Source: Candidatus Saccharimonadota bacterium
GTDB lineage: Bacteria > Patescibacteriota > Gracilibacteria > Absconditabacterales > Absconditicoccaceae
NCBI GenBank assembly: GCA_965231145.1
Contig: OZ246420.1
Coordinates: forward strand, 570,001-602,000
Direction of reading: 5' to 3'
DNA length: 32,000 nucleotides
Part shown: one piece after another, positions 11,629 through 30,986 of the stretch
Layout of the letters: each line of letters starts with the position of its first letter
Numbering within the stretch: the stretch's first letter is position 1
Notes under the pieces: model-generated
Database searches by the model: none
What the model was told of the DNA's origin: nothing
What the model saw: only the letters and a program-made list of their open reading frames with translations
Made by a program: the position numbers and the translations under genes

Positions 11629-13959
11629 ATGGCCGAGAATACTTCTACTCCTTCATCTAATCAGGCTGCTATCGTAAAGCCAGCTGTTGTGCAGTCTACT
11701 ATCAAAAAATGAAGAAAACTTTCTCCAAAAGCAGTAGTCTTTGGATGTCTTGGATTTATCGCGATATTTATTGTCGGACTATTTCTTGCACTCTACGTAG
11801 GACTCCAAAATCCAAGCAGGCTTATCAACATAGGTATCCAGCCTGCTAACGCAAAAAGCTTACTGATGATCATCGCAGGTGTGTTCTTTGGCGTTATTTT
11901 CCTCTTTGGATTTGGCTTTTTCGCTATCAACACCTATAGACTCGTCAGAAATAAAGGAGGAAGCAGAACAAAGTATCTTGCAGGTATGTTCTTTGGATTT
12001 ATACTCCTTGGTATATCTATTGGTCTTGGTGCTGCTGCAATCACTAGGATACAAGCTCTCAAAGTAGAAAGCTTTTCAAATACTGATGAGCTTGTTATTC
12101 CATATCTTATTACAAGTAGCAATAATACTGCTAATACAAGCTATACCTATGCAAAAGCTCCTGGCATCGCCATGATTGCCCCACTCGATATTGCATATCA
12201 GGTAAATGCTGATGTACTCAATGCAAAATATAGAAACGTCGCAGGCAATACTAACCCGCTTGTTATGGTCCTTGACTGTGGCAATGGTACAAGACAAAGA
12301 GAAAGTCAGAAAGTAAACGGAAATGGATACGTCGCAGGCAATAATGCTTTCTTCGACACCACATGTCTCTATACGCAAAAAGGAACTTACTATCCAACCA
12401 TCACATTTACTTATAGAGACACGGTAAAACAACAAAACCAATCATTCACTCTTGACGCAGCAACTATTACTATCAACGCACAACTGAGTGTTTCAGTTGA
12501 TGGCAAGCCTATCATGACAAACAGTGGAAATTCTGAACTCATCGCTGGAGATGCACCAACGAGAATACAATTGGATGCAAAAAACATCTTCTCTGAAATC
12601 GGCATGCCAGACAATAGTATCATCTGGGATATGGAAAGTGACGGAAGCCCAGATAAGGAAAACAAAGTAACATTTGGATACAACTACATCGATCCAAAAC
12701 TCTATATGGTTTCATATAGATTTCCGGGAGCCGGAGATTTATCAACGCTCTGGTATCACTTTTATCTGAGAGTCAATCAAAGCGACACACCAAGATGTTC
12801 AGTAAGCGCAACTAACGATGGGAACACATACAAGTTTGCAACGCTTTGGTCTGGAGGCATCAGTACAACACAAGAGATTAGCACCTATCGTTGGGAGATC
12901 TATGATATTGATACAGAATCAACTGTTACATCAATACCAACGAGAAACGATTCGCTGGAATATACGTTCAATAAGCAATGAAATTACACCGCAAGACTTA
13001 ACTTTACGACGATTGATAATGCTCAGTGACTATGTGAATCAGAAATTGTGCGTGCGTGAGCTCCAGCATATGATGTAAAATATATCATCAGCTATAGAAA
13101 ACCTGGACAGAGAAACTTCACAGAATTCCCGATGACATGAACTATCTCTCAAAAAGATGATAGAGTCGTTATTGATACCATACCTATTGATCTTCAAATC
13201 CAAGTAACAGACATCTCACCAAAACCAGCCACAGCGGTCATAACAGCAAAAGTAGGTGATATCTTTATGATCAAGAGATCGTCAACACTTTTCCAGTCTA
13301 CAGTGAGTGATAAGAAAGATCAGGCGATTACAATCATCGTTGAAGACGAACAGGGAACGAAAATAGAAAAAGTAATCGACCTCACACTCAATCAGTCTAT
13401 CATACAAGGAGTACTCAAGGCTGATATCTATGCAGGATCAGAACCTCTTACGGTCAATCTTGATGCATCTACCACAAAGCTCAATGATGACAACGACGAA
13501 ATCATCTATTTTACATGGGATTTCGGAGATGGAGAAACAGCAAAAAATGTTTCACAAGGAAAGCTTTCTCATATCTATAAGTTCGATCAAAAAACTCAAT
13601 CAGGACAATATAGACCAAAGGTAACAGTGACTACAAAAAATGGTTTCCAATCAACCTTTGAGATAGATACGCCAATCTCTGTGACAAGAAAAGAATCAAC
13701 GGTAAAATTAACTCTTCCTTCTCATCCTACACAAGTCGCACTCAAAAACACACCGGTCGACATGGAAATGAATTCTGATGGTCCAATCAGTAAGATCAGT
13801 TGGAACTTTGGAGACGGAACAACGTTCTCATGTGATGATAGATCGTGCGCACAAATAAAGCACGGCTACAAAGAAGAAGGAGACTATACGATCAATGTGA
13901 TGGTAGAGTACCAGGATCGCCCTTTCGCACTCGATAGTATCAAGATAAAGATACAATAA
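11629..13959 (+). CDS. membrane-anchored surface protein with multiple PKD-like domains
   Basis: ATG 11629. Five in-frame TGA (11710, 12979, 13027, 13057, 13138) join 11866..12981 and 13267..13959, and all fragments share one frame. There are three N-terminal TM helices. PKD hallmarks are FTWDFGDGETAK...GQYRPKVTVT and ISWNFGDGTT...GDYTINVMV. TGA falls on Gly in FNKQ[TGA]NYTARL and DNAQ[TGA]. The stop is TAA 13957-13959. Confidence 0.8.
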
Positions 13960-15371: not shown

Positions 15372-15405
15372 AAAAAAAGATCTCCTTGCGGGGATCTTTT
15401 TTTTA
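15372..15405. terminator. bidirectional terminator between the M16 peptidase and the ATPase-S1 gene
   Basis: A7-AGATCTCC-ttgc-GGGGATCT-T8. It overlaps the stop codon of the minus-strand gene. Confidence 0.7.
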
Positions 15406-18231
15406 TTGTTGGCTTCGCACTACTCTCTTTTCACCATTGATATCTTTGAATTCAACTGCTTTAACGCGGATTTTATCTCCGATATTATAGATATCTTTCC
15501 AGTTAATGCCTTCCGGTGCTTTCACAAAGTTTTTATGTAAGAGACCTTCTACTCACTTCACTGTAACGAATAATCCATAGTTATACTTAAGCTTCACAAA
15601 TCCATCGTACCAGTCTCCTATTTTCACATCGTTGATGGTAAAGGTTGTTTTACCCACCATAGGCACTCCTACTTCGTTAATCTTCATAGTAGTGTCAAAT
15701 CATGATGTTTGTCCTACAGCCTTAGCAGGCTGTTGTACTGGAGTTGACACAGAACTCTGAGGCACGCTACTCGTTGCTGACTGCGGATTACTAGCAGGCA
15801 CTGGTTCTTCCTTCTTTAATTCTGAATTCTGCACTTTGATTTCCGCACTTGCTTGCTGCTCATGTTTCCATCTTTCTGTATCAGCAACATCAGGGATAGA
15901 TGAAGTATTATCTATTGCTGGTGAAGCGCCTTCTTGAGCTGCTTCCATCGCTTTTTCCATCGCTTTCTCGACTGGCGAGAAAGTCTTATTTGACCAGATC
16001 TTAATCAGTTCTTCTAGTTTCCCACGCTCCATCGCATAACGCTGACGAGACTGAGTACGTATCTTGTCTTTGATCTCCTGTGAGAGATCCGGCTGTGACA
16101 ATGGCAGTGTCGACATACTAAATACGTCTGACATGATACCATCGACCATCAGTCTTATATACGCACGAAATTTTGGTATCGAAATAAGATCGTTTGCTGT
16201 CAGCAATCATTTGAACTGCTGCGCAATATCTACTGCGTCGTCATATCCTACGTTAAACGAAACGATAGAACCCACGTTACCAAAAATCGCATTACGAATA
16301 GTCTCTGAAAGCTGCGACGTATACTGATTCGCAACAATAAGCGCTAAGCGGTACTTACGAGCTTCGGAAAGGATCACTGCAAACGAGTCTGTTGCAAAGT
16401 TCTGAAACTCGTCAATATGCAGGTAGAAAGGACGTCTTTCCTTTTCAGGAATATTTGCACGAGACATTGCATCGATCTGCAGCTTCGTCACGATAAATGA
16501 ACCAATCATCTCAGTATTATCTTCACCGATCTTACCTTTCGAAAGATTGATCAGAAGGATCTTTCCTTCATCCATTACCTTTCTCATATTAAGCTTCGAC
16601 ATTGGCTGACCAAAGATATTTCTCACGATAGACGACGAAAGGAACTGACCAACTTTATTTGTAATAGGTGCAATGGCTTCATTTCTTTGGACATCTGACC
16701 ACTTATCAAACTCAGCACGCCGAAACTTCATAACGATGGGGTCTTTCACATATTCAAGTACCTCTTCACGGAAATTCTTATCGGTCAATACACGCATGAT
16801 ATGCAACATCGTTGCATTTGGATACTCCACAACAGAAAGCATTACATTACGAAGTACATACTCCAATCTTGGTCCCCAACTGGTACCGAACATCTTTTTA
16901 AATGTAGCAACCACTCACGAAACGATAATATTTTTCTCGTCCTCCGTGTTGTACTGCAGAAGATTAAATCCTATCGGATTTTGACTGTCGGAGACGTCAA
17001 ATAAAATAACGTCGTTAGTACGCCATGATGGGATATGCTCCATAACCGTATCCACAAGATCACCGTGTGGATCGATAAGACACAGTCCTTTGTTGGTATA
17101 CATATGTGATTTGATAATATTCGAGAGAAACGTAGATTTACCAGTACCTGTTTTTCCGACAATATAGAGATGACGAAACGAGTCTTCATCTTTCACACCA
17201 AAGCGAACCTCCTGTCCACGGAAGTCTGTTTTTCCCAAAAGCGTTAATGCATTCTTCTCTGTTGCTTCAGGCGTTGGTAGGTTTGATGGATAGTGAAGCT
17301 TACGATAGACAGAATAATCAAGGGTTTTGATAAAATAATCATTTGTTGGCAAGTGGAAAAAGTTTACGAGCTGTGGAAGCGCAAGTGATGTTGATTTTGG
17401 TTCAGGAATAATAGATGCGCCACCCTTCTGAACAAACTTATTGAAAACAGATTTCATCGCCATTTTCACTCACTGTTGTTTTTGAGCATCCCCAATACTG
17501 GTTCAAAATCCTATGCGCAAACCAAATTTCATAACATCATCTTCTGGTTTCTCTTTTTTCTCATCCTCCTTCTTTACTTCTTTCTTCACAAACATAGCAA
17601 AAAATTTTTTCACAGACTGTATATACTTCTTTCGCGGATCCTCTTTCTTCTTGAAAATATACGAGAATTGAAGCGTCACATTATTCAAATGATCTACTGT
17701 CTCATAAACCGAAAAGATATCTTTCATCGGATCAAGATAGCTTCCATCTTTCGTAAAGTCCTTGTCAGTCGCGATCACATCTTTATCACCATAAGCGACA
17801 TAATCAGTGATAGCAACCTGTGGTATCGCTTCTACAGGAATAAGTTCTGATGTTGGAAAACTTGAGTAAAATACATTTTCAAAATAGAATTGGATACTTG
17901 CCGGTATCTTTGCATACAGCCCTGATGAGTGGTTATTTCCTATGATCAGAAAGTGGATCGGATCAGTGATATCAGAAAAAGACTTAAGAAAACCCTGCCA
18001 GTAACCAGTACCTAAGTCGTTATCTCTAAAAGCTTTGATACGATAGAAAAAATATCCCGATGTAGGGAGCTGTTGTGGTTTTGGTGTCGGAGCAACCTCA
18101 CCCTGCATAGGCTGAGCTACTTGCTCCTTCGGAGCCTGAGTGGTTTTTACTGGTACAGAAATAACCTGCGAATTTTTACTCGCAAGTTTCTTTCCTAACG
18201 ACTCTGCTGCATCAAGTATTTTATCAAGCAT
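15403..18231 (-). CDS. VirD4/TraG-like (FtsK-HerA superfamily) P-loop ATPase with an unknown N-terminal domain and a C-terminal S1 domain
   Basis: Track fragments 17503..18231, 16915..17469, 16207..16914 and 15700..16206 share one frame. They are joined by TGA at 17503, 17470, 16915, 16207 and 15700, and there is one more TGA at 15553. Walker A is YIVGKTGTGKST, Walker B is FYLHIDEFQNF, and LALIVANQYTSQL follows. The C-terminal S1 fold is IGDWYDGFVKLKYNYGLFVTVK[TGA]VEGLLH...GDKIRVKAVEF. The stop is TAA 15403-15405. Confidence 0.75.
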
Positions 18232-21374: not shown

Positions 21375-21833
21375 TTATAATTCGATAGCTGCAAGCTGCT
21401 GAGACCAACGCGCATGTACAAGCTCGCTCTGCTGTTCATAATAGCGCTCTTTCGCAGTAAAACGAACTCGCATAGCATATAATGCAATACATAAGATGCT
21501 CCACAGTGAGATACATATGGGCAGGGCAATGTTGCGGGCCAGATTGTTACCTACGATAGCAACCACCACAATAGTGAGAATTATAGCTATCCAGCTATAA
21601 GAAAAGCGCTGATAGAGCATTTTCTCACGACTCTTATAGTTTGCATTCATATAGGCCGACATAGCTTCTAACTGCTGAACAGCCTGCTTATGTAAAAACA
21701 GTTTTATTGCCCTACGGGCTGCTTTGGGAAGTTTTGTTTTTTTCATACAAAAAAAGTTTAGTACGGCAATGATACTAAACTTATCCAATAATGTCAATGA
21801 AGAGGTTATAGCACTAATCACGGAGAAATTCAT
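21375..21833 (-). CDS. hypothetical membrane protein
   Basis: 152-aa ORF from ATG 21833, overlapping the upstream gene by 20 nt. An alternative ATG at 21746 gives MKKTKLPKAARR.... TM helices include WIAIILTIVVVAIVG and LPICISLWSILCIALYA. A terminator follows. Confidence 0.45.
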   Translation of the reverse strand: MNFSVISAITSSLTLLDKFSIIAVLNFFCMKKTKLPKAARRAIKLFLHKQAVQQLEAMSAYMNANYKSREKMLYQRFSYSWIAIILTIVVVAIVGNNLARNIALPICISLWSILCIALYAMRVRFTAKERYYEQQSELVHARWSQQLAAIEL

Positions 21834-22779
21834 CTACTTTTTTCATACCGAACCTGATAACATCTTTTTTTTCAAGAAGTACTTTATAATGCTGGTAGCG
21901 TTTCAGCTGATTTTCATATGCAGCTCTTTGAGTTTCATCTTCTGTTGATGCCATTTTTACTTTCAATTCTTGTTCTTCTTGCACCAAAAGATCACTGCTT
22001 GCGAGAAGAGTACGATACATACGAGTGTTTTCCTGAAATTCCTGACGCAAAGGATAAACATTCCTCTGTCCAAATAGATTGCTGGCAAATGGAGAGCATA
22101 CGATCATGTATCTTATATCATGCTTTTGTTGTAATTCTGTCAGCGTTTTTCTAAGCCACTGATGAGCATGATTGATACGACTGTTGTCTTCTCCTTCATA
22201 CGACTCATAGGGCATATTTTCTATATGCACAACATAGAGCATCTCTCCTGTCAATAAAGGATACTTTCTGTCTGTGACATGCGAAACAAAAGCTTCACTT
22301 TCATGCGTGCCTTTTACTATCTCAACCGAAATTATTCCTGTTGGTTCGTGTATCACTTCCTGCGTTTTCCAGTTATCATCTATAGGCGATGAGTTATTTG
22401 CATGTTGCAGTATAATAGTGTAGATCATCTTACGCTTTGCTACTTCCATCTTATCTTCTTTATCTTCAGCGTCGATGATACGTTTTAAGTTCCCACGCAT
22501 TCTATTACCATATGAATTGGAAGGCATACCTTCATTGATCCATTCAATGACTTTACGAATATCGTACTCATGCTCAGTACCAATATAGTGTTGGAAAAAA
22601 TTGCTAATAGTTGGATTATGATCTACTCAAAAACTATAGGAAAGTACCGGCATCTGAGGAGTAGCCAATACATGGTGTACTTCTTTTTTTGTTGTAGCAA
22701 CCGCTGCCGACTTCGGGGAGGCGGGTTCAGGTTCAGGAGATACAGCAAATGCAGAAAGGAAACTAGCTAATAATGTCAT
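21814..22779 (-). CDS. hypothetical protein, possibly exported
   Basis: ATG 22779 (MTLLASFLSAFAVSPEPEP...). One TGA (about 22628) joins it to track ORF 21814..22527. The C-terminus is predicted coiled-coil-like (VQEEQELKVKMASTEDETQRAAYENQLKRYQ). The stop is TAG 21814-21816. Confidence 0.55.
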
Positions 22780-24969: not shown

Positions 24970-27900
24970 TTACAACTTTATCGTTCCTTTCTGTTTAGAA
25001 GTTAGTTTATCGTATTTTTGCTGAATAGCTGCATAGAGTAGTCCTTCCTTAGGTTTTCAATCCTGCTCCCACATTTCAATTAACTGTTTAATATTAGTAA
25101 GCGTTTCCGCTTCCTTTCTTTGTTGTTTTTCTTTCTTATTTTTTGAAGAAATCGTAGATATTTCTTCAACTTTCTTTCATTCTTTTTGTTTTTTACGTGC
25201 CTCTTTTTCCTTTTTAAGAATAGTAGAAGAACCTCATTTTAATACACCATTACTGTCGTATTCAACACCGTTAACTTCTATCATTATTGCATTTTGCTCA
25301 TCATCATGGAAAACAACAAATCAGGCCGAATGGGCATCACTTGCGACCACAACATCTTTTCAATCTACATATAATCCACCATTATATCCTGAAAGGAGTC
25401 ATAATTTTCTATGAAGCATCATTCTAAAGATTTGCATATCATGACAGACACCTGCGAATATCTTCTCTTCAAAAAATATTTTCTTTTCTGGATGATAAAT
25501 ATAGAGATCTGTTATTCTATCCATACATACTTGCATCTGCTCTGAAAGGCTTTTATTTTTCTTTTTATCTAATGTTTCTTGGTTATCCCAATCATAATAT
25601 CGCGTATCTATAATGAAATCTTCTACTGCCAATATTTGCTCCTTAGGAGTGAGCTTCTGAGCAGCTTTTATAAATCATTCGCATTCCAATGGAAGCTGAC
25701 CAAGATCGCTACTCAGATCTATGCTAGGATTTGCAATTTTAAATGTCCCTTTTACTTTTTCATATGCTTCTTTTGATATAGTAGGTATTGTCGGAGATGC
25801 TGAAGATAACTGTAATTTGTAAGAAAAAATACACTGAGGCTCGGAAGGAATAATACTTACGTATCATGCCTCATCCTCTTCCATGTCAAAATCAACAGAG
25901 AGGCCTGCTGCATTTACACACTTTATTGATGCTTTTTCAATAAGAGTATTTATACCTTTTGGCAATATTTTAGATGACATATCATTATCTAATTGGATAA
26001 CAATCTCTACCTGATCTATGGGCTCCCATAACTGTGGTACATAATTATACGAAGTTCATTTCCATACTTTTCCATCAAAATGAGAAAATAAATTTATAGA
26101 AAGCATTTGTGTTATAGGCTTACTCAAGCGTAATATTTCTGCATGATTATCTTCTTCAAAACTTTCTTTACTTCCTCCTTGTATCTGTTTATCTTGTTGA
26201 TTTCTTAAATGATCGTGCTCTGTTTGCTCTAAGATCTTTTTATGCTCTTGATGAAACAAATCTGCATAGTCCTTACTGCTTTCACTCCCATTTGTATGTG
26301 CTGCTGATCACGCTGTAGATCAGAAAATCGTTTGCAGAAGTTTTTCTTGAGCAGTAAGCTGAGGGACTTGTTGTACATTGAAAAGTTTCTTCATTATCCT
26401 ATAGACTCCTACCTCATTTTTCACGAGTCAAGGCAACTGCCCCATATAGTGCTTCAGACCTTCCTTTTCCTTCAGCATCATCGTAGAGAGATGCGAGTCC
26501 ATGAAATAATTAGAGGCAAGTACGTTTTCTATTTCTTTTTCATATGCTGACAATGCAAATGCATCAAGAAATTGCGAGCGCATCTTGCCTTCCTTATCAT
26601 CAATACAATTTAGCAAAAATAATTTCTTTTTTACGTCCAGAGAAATAGCATTTGGACGAATTACTGGCACTTCTATTTTTAGAATTGTACCTTGCATGGT
26701 CTTTGCTGTAACCGTAATCAGCCCATCCGAGCCATGTTCTACATGAAAATTTTTTATCGGTTGTCATATGTGATCTCATATTACTTCACTCGCATATCTA
26801 TCCATCATATGGAGACAACCATCCTGATCTCTCAGTATGAGGAGCTGATTATATTCATTGCTATAAAATCAATTATATGCTCATTTCTCTAAATAAGTCT
26901 CACCAAAAAAATCTAGCATATATTCTTTGCTCTTATCATTATCCCAATTATCTACATCGTCGTCGTTATCTGCCATGTCACTAGTTGATGATTCGTATTT
27001 TATAACATGCACAAATCACTGGCACAAATTATTAAAGGTGATCTCTGCTGGCAATCACGACATGAATTCATCATATCTCTCTAAAAATCTTTTAGTAGGA
27101 TCAAATGAGGTTAGATTTCCATGAACTCTAACTACCCGAGCTTGTAATTGTTCATCTTTGACTATTTCATATCCCACTGGAATGTCTTCATTTATAGAGG
27201 CTACTATATCACGAATAAGCATACCTTTAGCACTATCTGCATATGGATATAATGCTCCATGCCATTCTTTAGTCTCCTCTTTTTGGGCTTCACGGAGATA
27301 CTCAATATAATTCATTGTTTCTTTTATAACACGTTTACTTTCATGGCATGCATCAAACTCTAGAGGCGCATATCTTCTATGAACTAACAAATGAGCATAG
27401 TATTCATCTATCTCATGTCTCAATGAACTATACTTACGAGACAATATCAGAGGTTTATCGAGATTGTATTCTTTGACATAGATCCCCGTATAAAGCATTT
27501 TTTTCGCACTGTCTAACATGAAACTAGGGGCATCAATATTCTTAAGTTTTCTTAATCTTTCGACCCTCTCTGGAGAAAGGAAATACGCCCTAATACCTTC
27601 TATTTTTTCTTTATTTATATTTTTATGCTTTGCAATCAATTTCGTTAACGAATTATTTACCTTCTGCATAAAAAATTTGTAGTTCTTGATTACATCCAAA
27701 TTGAGAATAATTGGTATAAGGATCTCGTTTAAGTTCTCCTCGCTATGATATAATCTCAATAACATATTAATTCCATCATCAAGCGAGATACTACAAATAT
27801 ACTTTAAAAACTCTCTTTGTTCTTTTAGAGGAAGAGCTCTTATTTCTTCAAATATCTTATTCTTTTTTTTGATAAATTCTCTCGTCTCTGAAATTTTCAA

Positions 27901-28020
27901 AGTGTCTGAAAAGTATCATGATGTATCAATATTATCATCATAATGACGAGAAACCTCATCTGTTGTGAGATTCACCATATTTTGTTCGCTAGATGCTCTT
28001 TGGGGGCTTACAGATGCCAT
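24970..28020 (-). CDS. large (1016 aa) hypothetical protein with a possible C-terminal transglutaminase-like cysteine protease core
   Basis: ATG 28020. Track fragments 27055..27900, 26428..26697, 26056..26259 and 25399..25632 share one frame. I hand-translated the gaps between them and found only TGA, with no TAA or TAG. There are about 19 sense TGA. The stop is TAA 24970-24972. The candidate core is FAGVCHDMQIFRMMLHRKL...ASDAHSA.FVVFHDDEQ. Confidence 0.7.
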
Positions 28021-29234: not shown

Positions 29235-30986
29235 CTAAAACCCACTTTGCAATTCTAGCATCTTCGCATAGACTCCTCCGCTCTTTACGAGAGAGTCATG
29301 ATTTCCTTCTTCAACTATTTTCCCATGATCGAGTACGATGATTCTGTCTGCTTTCTTCACTGTTTGGAGTCTATGTGCAATAACCACTACTGTTCTTCAC
29401 TGGAAAAGATTATTGAACGCCTTCGTTACCTCTTCTTCAGAGAATGAGTCTAAAGCCGAAGTTGGCTCATCGAGCAAGATGATCTGAGGGTTCTTAAGCA
29501 TGACTTTTGCGATAGCGAGTCTTTGTCTCTGACCTCATGAAAGCTTTACACCCTTCTCTCCGATTTCTGTTTGTACGCCATCAGGAAACTCATAGATGAA
29601 TTGGCACTGGGCGCCATTGATAGCCTGTTCAAGTTCTTCTTGAGATGGTTCATGATCAAGCGCATACGTGAGATTTTCATAGATGGTGCCATCGAACACA
29701 TTTGGTTCTTGGGTCAGATAACCGATATGCTTATAGTATGATTTGAGTGAGACATAGTTCTTATTAGTCTCGTTTGGCAGTGGCTGTCAGTCAATAAGTA
29801 CTTCTCCTTTTTGCGGATGGATGTATCCCGCTATAAGTTTAATGAGCGTAGACTTTCCACTTCCTGATATACCAACAAGAGCTGTTTTTTTTCATCATTC
29901 AAGGGTGAGAGAGAAATCTTTGAGCACTTCTCCTTTTCCATAGCCATAAGTAATATTTTGCAACTCAACATCTCATACACTTAATTCTATTTTTTTTCAT
30001 TCATTATATCATATTAATGAAGGTATATTATCAAATGTATCTCGAAGCTTTTGAATATAAATATTGTCCTGATGGAATGACGTAATGTAATCATTTAAAT
30101 CCATAATACTTCCATAAATTTGATTTAATATCATCCGAAACAGAGCAAGATCTCCAACAGTAAATTCTCCACGTCATATACGAACGATAACATAAAACAT
30201 AATACCAATACGTAGAATAGTGAAAGTAAATTTCTGCAAATCAAACGTTACAAGCATCTTTCTTGATTCTCTTGTTCGCATTTTATAAATCTTTCTGAAA
30301 AATGAGTCTATTTTATCTGATTCGTAGCCAAGTTTATTGTTCTGTAAAATTTCAAATTTAGACATAATCATTCTCGTTGTATTTCTATCTAATTCTGTAG
30401 ACAGATCTCTTCTTTCTTTTCTATATTTTGCCAATTTTTTATTGGCAAATTGTATAAATATAAATGAAGCTATAAAGATAACTACAAATGTGACAAAACC
30501 TTTTCGTCAAAGATTGATTGCTACAACAACAAATCATGTTATAATTGACACTCACATTCTAATTGCACTTCAAAAGAGTGATTGAAGATTAAGTCTCCAG
30601 GTAGGCAGTCATTTAGATATAATATTATTGATTCTTCACGTCCCTAAAGATTCAAAGCTATTATTATCTCCTATGGCATATTTAACGATATATTCTTGCC
30701 ATAGATTTGATTCTATAGACCAACCCATTGTACTAGAAAGTTGACGAAAAAAGTATGCAGGCAAGTCTGATAGTGCGAAGACAACACCCATAACGACTAA
30801 CCACGTATATACTATCTTCATATTTCCAACAGCTAGGCCATCAATCATTTGTTGCATTGCAATAGCTACTATGGATCCTTGTAATCCAACTTGGATAGCT
30901 CTAATTGATATAATCGTAGCAGCTCACTTAAACCCACTAATCGGAGCGAAGAATCTTTTACACCATAATCGTCTAGATTCTTTCAT
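29235..30986 (-). CDS. ABC exporter, fused permease and ATPase (MsbA-type half transporter)
   Basis: ATG 30986 to TAG 29235-29237, 583 aa, with about 16 sense TGA. The TMD is followed by LTLE[TGA][TGA][15 protein letters not shown] (Walker A), GYLTQEP (Q-loop), KLS[TGA][10 protein letters not shown] (signature), [11 protein letters not shown] (Walker B) and VIAHRL (H-loop). Confidence 0.9.

Follow-up and report, generated by a model that had tools for sequence, protein, structure and literature searches.

A coupling-protein-like ATPase with a C-terminal S1 domain encoded by one TGA-recoded gene of an Absconditabacterales genome

What is encoded by the minus-strand region 15403 to 18231 of a 32,000-nucleotide stretch, referred to below as the window, from a Candidatus Saccharimonadota bacterium (GenBank assembly GCA_965231145.1, contig OZ246420.1, positions 570,001 to 602,000), and what might a conjugation-type ATPase carrying an S1 domain do in such an organism? 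The original prediction, made from the sequence alone, had read the region as a soluble VirD4/TraG-type coupling ATPase fused to an additional N-domain and a C-terminal S1 nucleic-acid-binding domain. We find that the region is one intact gene in a genome with TGA as a glycine codon (Absconditabacteria/Gracilibacteria type), and that the product is the Gracilibacteria/SR1 version of a coupling-protein-like ATPase family distributed throughout the Candidate Phyla Radiation (CPR).

The whole gene (15403..18231, minus strand) consists of 942 codons, six of them TGA read as Gly, and ends in a TAA stop. Translation of this region gave 943 codons, in which the only internal stops were TGA, at codons 243, 254, 439, 675, 844, and 893, and the terminal TAA was located at 15403–15405. 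The open frame extends upstream to 18255; its first ATG is located at 18231, in agreement with the N-termini of orthologues. The chance of a 942-codon open reading frame (ORF) free of TAA and TAG at 38% GC was estimated from base composition to be about 1e-20. All of the long ORFs obtained by greedy non-overlapping calls in the window (32 of 32 within 1–32000) stop at TAA or TAG; in-frame TGA is present in many of them, with a maximum of 19 per ORF. In the alignment with 37 homologues, TGA codon 439 corresponds to a conserved Gly (G in 28, W in 8), and so does TGA codon 893 (G in 20, W in 14); the W in these database homologues results from translation of this TGA codon with table 4. The identical 942-amino-acid protein is present in public collections (P0194), with W at every TGA position. 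Homologues of 820–1074 amino acids span all the modules described below, and one orthologue (P0043, locus L002 8167–11148) holds all three of them in a single, entirely TGA-free ORF of 993 codons. Continuity of the ORF, conserved Gly at TGA, and the TGA-free orthologue altogether indicate one gene, neither a pseudogene nor several genes, and bear out the proposal that six sense TGA codons join the fragments into one 942-codon ORF. No tRNA gene, including any for UGA, was found in the 32-kb window.

The protein is composed of three folded modules, an N-domain at about residues 58–303, an FtsK-HerA ATPase at about 329–745, and an S1 barrel at 858–942, with a disordered linker before the S1. The first 20 residues (MLDKILDAAESLGKKLASKN; 18172..18231, minus strand) correspond to a helix at 2–21 in the structural model of homologue P0003, and are followed by a disordered low-complexity stretch of about residues 21–57, for which the predicted local distance difference test score (pLDDT) of the P0003 model stays below 40 (residues 20–80). 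This start is conserved in orthologues, and the helix and the disordered stretch occupy the position of transmembrane helices in other CPR orthologues. No transmembrane helix was detected in the window protein, the highest 19-residue Kyte-Doolittle mean being 1.05. The N-domain (17323..18060, minus strand) is of alpha/beta type and resembles the N-terminal domain of VirB4; it includes TGA codons 243 and 254 and an invariant NFFHxPT at 290–296. The ATPase (15997..17247, minus strand) is of the VirD4/TrwB type, as recognized by Pfam, PDB profile, and Foldseek searches, and contains an all-alpha insert at about 430–555. Its Walker A motif, G359-KTGTGK-S366 (17134..17157, minus strand), was read from the sequence, and no variation at K360, K365, or S366 was seen among 38 sequences. 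The Walker B motif, Y603-LHID-E608 (16408..16425, minus strand), is followed by FQNFA, and D607, E608, F609, Q610, N611, F612, and A613 are invariant in the same number of sequences. The SEARKY and ANQ blocks are likewise invariant, and the Walker and TraG/TraD/VirD4 motifs quoted in the original prediction are all present in the sequence. The Ser/Pro/Gln-rich linker at about 776–857 (15661..15906, minus strand) is disordered, with pLDDT of 25–33 over its equivalent in P0003, and varies in length and sequence between orthologues. Finally, the S1/OB-fold domain (15406..15660, minus strand) keeps K880, L881, N884, Y885, F888, L897, L898, H899, and K900 invariant in all 38 aligned close homologues; Y885, F888, and H899 among them are its aromatic and His positions.

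Profile searches, suggested together with the original prediction as a check, gave significant matches to both the coupling-protein/HerA families and S1. Above the Pfam cut-offs were DUF87/HerA at 338–582 (E 8e-10, 39.6 bits against 23.2), TrwB_AAD_bind at 353–644 (E 7e-7, 28.9 bits against 20.5), and S1 (PF00575) at 869–927 (E 1e-5, 26.2 bits against 22). TraG-D_C at 601–662 stayed under its 22-bit cut-off with 19.7 bits, FtsK_SpoIIIE was marginal, and no match to T4SS-DNA_transf or CagE_TrbE_VirB was reported in the Pfam search of the window protein. NCBIfam gave weak matches far below threshold only (VirD4-like, TraD, CedD, HerA, and ribosomal protein S1), for instance 37 bits against 250 for VirD4-like CD1115 and 28.8 against 366 for SXT_TraD. 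When a profile of 38 homologues was used for a PDB profile search, ribosomal protein bS1 (1e-9) and TrwB (6e-5) were detected, and the S1 part also matched PNPase and RNase R.

Structures were predicted for two homologues, P0003 (AlphaFold; 61–66% identical, mean pLDDT 70) and the N-terminal fragment P0123. The P0003 model begins with a helix and a disordered segment, continues with the alpha/beta N-domain and a RecA-like core carrying an insert, and ends, after about 100 disordered linker residues, in a barrel of five strands; eight helices between two strands of the ATPase core represent the all-alpha insert. Foldseek matches for this model were TrwB, DotL, Cag-beta, HerA, and VirB4, with probability 1.00 for TrwB, DotL, and Cag-beta. 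A separate N-domain, ATPase, and S1 barrel were thus modelled, as the suggested structure prediction was to examine. Taken together with hydropathy, the Pfam, NCBIfam, PDB profile, and Foldseek results support the original description of a soluble coupling ATPase with an extra N-domain and an S1, and a C-terminal S1 domain following the Ser/Pro/Gln-rich linker was confirmed by Pfam, PDB profile, and the five-strand barrel of the model.

The N-domain had been described as an unknown part of 242 residues. Absence of a transmembrane helix from this part was correct, and no relative was indeed recognizable by sequence: Pfam and a PDB profile search with the N-domain were both empty, and a profile search with the N-domain alignment gave 14 fragments and no new architectures. 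By phmmer with residues 1–242 against 1.84 billion representatives, 62 matches were obtained, all of them full-length orthologues or table-11 fragments, indicating that a single-sequence search fails to detect the N-domain outside the family. Structural relatives were found, however, in VirB4/TrwK and in Bacillus phages. For the P0123 model (pLDDT 84, predicted TM-score 0.76), all of the top 10 Foldseek matches in PDB were TrwK/VirB4 chains of plasmid R388 (E 4.5e-5 to 1e-3, TM-score 0.34–0.41). With the full-length P0003 model, TrwK was again the best match (E 3.6e-11), colinear over about 800 columns. Among predicted viral structures (BFVD), the N-domain model matched proteins of phage Slash (E 6e-15), phage JL (E 1.5e-12), and phage G (gp156, E 3e-12), and also phage G gp155, annotated as 'VirB-like' (E 1e-5). 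The N-domain is thus likely to be homologous to that of VirB4, as judged from models of modest TM-score and in the absence of a sequence signal, and the protein joins a VirB4-like N-terminal architecture to an ATPase with the scores of a coupling protein.

The boundary of the N-domain was not correctly placed in the original prediction, since the domain reaches about residue 303; the 242-residue part is an artefact because its end merely marks the position of the first TGA. For the same reason the proposed 12-codon linker with two TGA codons could not be maintained: codons 243 and 254 lie within secondary-structure elements of the N-domain fold (one beta-strand, one helix) that are modelled in the homologue with pLDDT of about 90.

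The distribution of the family was then examined in a scan of one genome per species, which gave at least 595 loci. Among the matches listed, the ATPase core is 40–50% identical in Saccharibacteria, many Parcubacteria groups, Microgenomates, Berkelbacteria, and Peregrinibacteria. Full ORFs of 56 loci were extracted and searched with profiles of the three modules. In long forms of 800–1100 amino acids the N-domain is fused to the ATPase. For short forms (526–771 amino acids, in Parcubacteria-type genomes), the N-domain is encoded by the immediately upstream ORF on the same strand (420–590 amino acids), which usually ends less than about 240 bases, and often less than 10, before the ATPase start. 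Because the two are separate adjacent genes in some genomes outside the clade, the N-domain and the ATPase are separable in evolution. In the window protein they are fused, and orthologues of the same clade likewise keep all three modules in one ORF.

Many non-recoded orthologues and split N-domain ORFs start with strongly hydrophobic (transmembrane) helices, which the window protein does not have. The C-terminal tails of the 56 orthologues also differ: a treble-clef zinc finger of the CxxC-x17-CxxC type (PF23477, E 1e-13 to 1e-16) was found in 25, a K/R-rich tail in 11, and S1 in 6, while 2 are truncated. All six S1-tailed proteins are TGA-recoded, and the S1 tail is confined to the TGA-recoded Gracilibacteria/SR1 clade within this set. 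The form specific to this clade is characterized by the absence of an anchor, replaced with a short helix and a disordered segment, by a long linker, and by a highly conserved S1. In addition, a membrane-anchored paralogue of about 830 amino acids terminates soon after the ATPase without a long tail. According to a recent survey (Quinonero-Coronel et al. 2025, PMC12102498), 5,713 VirD4-like homologues exist in 2,918 of 3,035 CPR genomes, and only 148 of them are near virB4. As the two paralogues and the CPR distribution fit these data, the window protein almost certainly belongs to the orphan 'T4CP homologues' (homologues of type IV coupling proteins, T4CPs) of that survey.

Several features of family members were noted in addition. 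In several CPR loci, the orthologue is accompanied at a distance of no more than a few kb by a paralogue of about 820–850 amino acids, with one N-terminal transmembrane helix, N-domain, and ATPase (L043 16192–18672, minus strand, of an oral SR1 genome; L033 1913–4459; L075 3897–6413; L026 7005–9455). Many orthologues of Gracilibacteria/SR1 (among them P0024, P0043, P0071, P0093, and P0022) carry within the ATPase-S1 linker an additional conserved stretch of about 130 residues with the motif FxxYxIDGxxxDAxxxDxxxxxHKxIWYxKP…IWVGxxxxV, in place of which the window protein has only the Ser/Pro/Gln-rich stretch. For the contig of locus L002 (JGI contig Ga0466708_089058, labelled Candidatus Peribacteria), the long-ORF total was 14.4 kb under table 11 and 25.0 kb with TGA read-through, and the genes next to the orthologue appear broken up under table 11. 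This contig probably also recodes TGA, and its taxonomic label or gene calls may therefore be unreliable.

As to function, we regard as the best explanation, with somewhat better than even confidence, that the protein is a ring motor on single-stranded nucleic acid, with the S1 as capture module and a role in uptake or processing of host nucleic acid. Invariance of the Walker A, Walker B, SEARKY, and ANQ blocks suggests that an NTP-hydrolysing ring would be formed, as in TrwB, HerA, and FtsK. The S1 domain, predicted from sequence and model to bind nucleic acid, could capture a single strand on its flexible tether and pass it to the ring or hold it there. Nucleic acid is suggested as the substrate because one small tail module of nucleic-acid-binding type is recurrently swapped for another at the same position. 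RNA would be a likelier substrate than DNA, which the presence of S1 weakly favours; a search with the zinc-finger alignment gave only stand-alone CxxC-x17-CxxC proteins of 43–79 amino acids and was of no help in this respect. Through the N-domain the ring may dock to a partner, for which the membrane-anchored paralogue and a type IV secretion machinery encoded elsewhere are possible candidates. The biological role is hypothesized to be that nucleic acid obtained from the host is taken up or processed. Bacteria of the CPR (Patescibacteria) have no nucleotide synthesis of their own. Direct uptake of host RNA has been reported for a cultivated Patescibacterium, by a mechanism that the authors leave unresolved (2026 preprint, bioRxiv 10.64898/2026.06.21.733656). 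In Southlakia, the type IV secretion system is essential and comEC is dispensable for viability (2025 review, PMC12857230). Exaptation of the VirD4-like homologues is left as a possibility in PMC12102498.

A number of points weigh against this proposal. The oligomer state, the substrate, and the direction of transport are all inferred. S1 domains also bind single-stranded DNA and occasionally proteins. A nucleic-acid role of the zinc finger is putative, as judged from sequence, the basic tails are non-specific, and 12 of the 56 orthologue tails fall outside the S1, zinc-finger, and K/R-rich classes. Because the anchor is absent, the window protein alone could not move cargo across a membrane. 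Neighbour clustering over 69 related loci detected no partner that is conserved alongside the recoded orthologues and no conserved synteny, and the neighbours in the window, being housekeeping or envelope genes, give no functional clue. Moreover, the T4CP homologue of Southlakia is reported to be non-essential for epibiotic growth (PMC12102498), which argues against a sole indispensable route of uptake.

A broader version, which we put forward as a tentative and rather doubtful idea, is that the CPR-wide ATPase serves as motor or cytoplasmic receiver for host nucleic acid, RNA especially, that the interchangeable tails (S1 here, the treble-clef zinc finger in Parcubacteria-type lineages, or basic tails in others) are its capture devices, and that the anchor-less S1 form works with an anchored paralogue or a type IV apparatus. 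If this were true, the missing machinery for host-RNA feeding of the cultivated Patescibacterium would be at hand, and the protein would represent the first coupling-type ATPase dedicated to RNA. Nearly every CPR genome carries two paralogous VirD4-like ATPases without an assigned role. The protein is a concrete and testable candidate for nucleic-acid handling in CPR, the functional link being a conjecture. It also bears on the relationship between VirB4 and VirD4, because one protein pairs an N-terminal architecture resembling that of the former with the ATPase signature of the latter.

Next to be considered is an ordinary T4CP, serving as substrate receptor of a CPR type IV secretion system encoded elsewhere, with export of protein or DNA to the host and the S1 as an accessory adaptor. 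We judge this reading plausible, though of low probability. The ATPase matches TrwB_AAD_bind and TraG-D_C, together with T4SS-DNA_transf in a Saccharibacteria orthologue, and the structure is similar to those of TrwB, DotL, and Cag-beta; a second member of the family is located 1.5–2.5 kb away in Saccharibacteria- and Berkelbacteria-type loci. Genes for coupling proteins are often far from virB4, and CPR do possess type IV secretion (PMC12102498; PMC12857230). The lack of a membrane anchor, on the other hand, speaks against such a receptor, and no relaxase, VirB4, pilin, or other type IV secretion gene was found within the 32-kb window, as had been noted in the original prediction. The numbers reported in the survey point in the same direction, because relaxases are scarce in CPR (109 in 3,035 genomes) and VirD4-like proteins are present in more genomes than VirB4 (2,918 vs 2,417 of 3,035), and so does Southlakia, for which the homologue is described there as dispensable but the secretion genes as essential (PMC12102498). 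Even if the protein were a routine coupling protein, the assignment would still be a useful correction of annotation for thousands of genes now called 'DUF87 domain-containing'.

A cytoplasmic DNA translocase or helicase of the HerA/FtsK type, engaged in repair, recombination, or chromosome handling with the S1 binding single-stranded DNA ends, is in our view unlikely. The protein is soluble, DUF87/HerA is its best Pfam match, and HerA is among the top Foldseek matches. On the other hand, the HerA equivalog models match far under their cut-offs, the HAS-barrel N-domain is absent and a VirB4-like one is present instead, and a NurA-like nuclease is not adjacent in the window or in any of the 69 related loci. 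Most orthologues in other CPR classes are membrane-anchored, which is a poor fit for a repair helicase. A HerA-NurA repair function was rejected on the grounds of the missing HAS barrel, the missing adjacent nuclease, and the anchored orthologues.

We consider it very unlikely that the protein is a component of anti-phage defence, either mad8-like of the MADS system or of HerA type. PADLOC mad8 does match residues 330–649 (E 1.2e-19), several HerA defence models match weakly, and no statement of what mad8 is was found in the MADS papers; but no other gene of the eight-gene mad operon is adjacent, and the neighbours are housekeeping genes. Since the 40–50% identity extends, among the matches listed, across a phylum-level radiation, the gene appears to be a vertically inherited core gene rather than part of a defence island, and the defence reading was rejected for lack of adjacent mad genes and for this vertical conservation. 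It is hardly credible that TGA are real stops of a pseudogene or of several small genes, or that the fusion is an assembly error. Table 11 would cut the region into ORFs of 251, 185, 236, and 169 codons, and fragments of this kind, such as P0121 of 242 amino acids, exist in databases, but the comparative data refute such a reading (conserved Gly at two TGA positions, TAA or TAG at the end of every window ORF, full-length homologues including one TGA-free orthologue, and TGA codons 243 and 254 within a confidently modelled fold).

The gene is surrounded by those for an M16 peptidase, a PKD-domain membrane protein, an SLH protein, a rhodanese, QueA, and MiaB, and a second copy of any of the three modules was not found in the window. 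A terminator-like hairpin (15372..15403, both strands) with a 14-pair stem flanked by an A-run and a T-run lies between two convergent genes, immediately next to the stop codon. On the upstream side, an intergenic region separates the gene from a divergent neighbour. The gene looks monocistronic. The comparison of neighbourhoods suggested with the original prediction was carried out on the 69 loci, with the result described above for recoded orthologues.

In 37 of the 69 loci of this set, the gene that directly precedes the N-domain/ATPase module, in the same orientation, codes for a protein of about 330–440 amino acids (Sigma70_r4, HARE-HTH, DUF3320), for example at L048 6581–7675 and L050 5475–6536 (range L016–L082); this gene is absent from the window and from other TGA-recoded loci. 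This arrangement suggests that, in most CPR classes, the Sigma70_r4/HARE-HTH gene, the N-domain, and the ATPase form a unit of three genes. In the window (11629–13959, plus strand) and in two distant orthologous loci, L001 (14912–17926) and L002 (18765–19700), a large PKD-domain protein of membrane or surface type is encoded within a few kb of the gene, which may be a coincidence because the clustering found no conserved synteny. Elsewhere in the window, an ORF of 1016 codons with 19 in-frame TGA (24970–28020, minus strand) gave no Pfam match at E ≤0.01, and an ABC transporter ORF (29235–30986, minus strand) contains 16 TGA. Two ORFs of the same strand, 21375–21833 and 21814–22779 (both minus), overlap by 20 bases and are both without Pfam match; the downstream one has several hydrophobic segments, and the pair may be a small operon.

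How does this protein compare with known systems? The canonical type IV coupling protein has an N-terminal transmembrane anchor. The T4CPs, such as VirD4, TrwB, TraG, TraD, DotL, and Cag-beta, share with the window protein the RecA-like FtsK-HerA domain, the Walker A and B motifs, and the all-alpha insert, and the similarity to TrwB is seen both in Foldseek (TM-score of about 0.5, normalized to TrwB, over about 350–385 columns) and in the match to TrwB_AAD_bind above cut-off. Unlike these proteins, the window protein lacks the N-terminal transmembrane domain, carries instead an N-domain of about 245 residues and a C-terminal S1, has no linked relaxase or secretion genes in the window, and stays under the cut-offs of TraG-D_C and the NCBIfam coupling-protein models. 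With VirB4/TrwK of R388 it appears, as judged from structural models, to share the order of a soluble N-terminal domain and a C-terminal ATPase, aligned at full length over about 800 columns. It is different from VirB4, however, in that TIGR00929 gave only E 0.023 (12.9 bits against 643), that the VirB4 models of NCBIfam gave E of at least 0.023 except for a marginal one of a Mycoplasma integrative and conjugative element, that the ATPase scores higher on coupling-protein models than on AAA_10, and that the TM-score of the N-domain is only 0.34–0.41.

About 96% of CPR genomes contain the VirD4-like ATPases counted as orphan 'T4CP homologues' of Patescibacteria, at about two per genome and mostly away from virB4 (PMC12102498). 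In the passages searched, the survey reports only counts and gene locations, and a VirB4-like N-domain, split and fused forms, lineage-specific tails, or an anchor-less S1 variant are not described there. No paper describing a fusion of coupling ATPase and S1 was found in literature searches. The anchor-less, S1-tailed architecture is thus undescribed, as the original prediction had supposed, but the family itself is already known, having been counted in that survey. The same order of N-domain and ATPase exists in gp156 of Bacillus phage G and its relatives (phrog_5156; SPO1-like phages, Slash, and JL). The phrog_5156 family matches residues 333–743 at E 3.5e-62, and the N-domain profile detected gp156 with E 3.5e-5. 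These phage homologues are different from the window protein in being only 21–29% identical, without S1, and labelled 'MsbA-like' or 'hypothetical'. The gp156 gene (L083, JN638751.1 90859–93336, 825 amino acids, 'MsbA-like') follows that for gp155, labelled 'VirB-like', and relatives occur in 47 other Bacillus-group phage records, with about 24% identity for SPO1-like phages.

HerA of the HerA-NurA system belongs to the same superfamily and shares the DUF87 central domain, but the HAS barrel and the NurA partner have no counterpart here. The similarity to CedB/CedD is limited to a weak NCBIfam match to CedD (E 2e-9, 36 bits against a cut-off of 600); in the Ced system, VirB4-like ATPases can power the import of nucleic acid (PMC11868833). 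Finally, the C-terminal 85 residues match the S1 domains of the RNA-binding proteins bS1, PNPase, and RNase R, with the five-strand barrel in common. Unlike any of these three, the window protein tethers a single S1 domain to a conjugation-type, presumably ring-forming ATPase.

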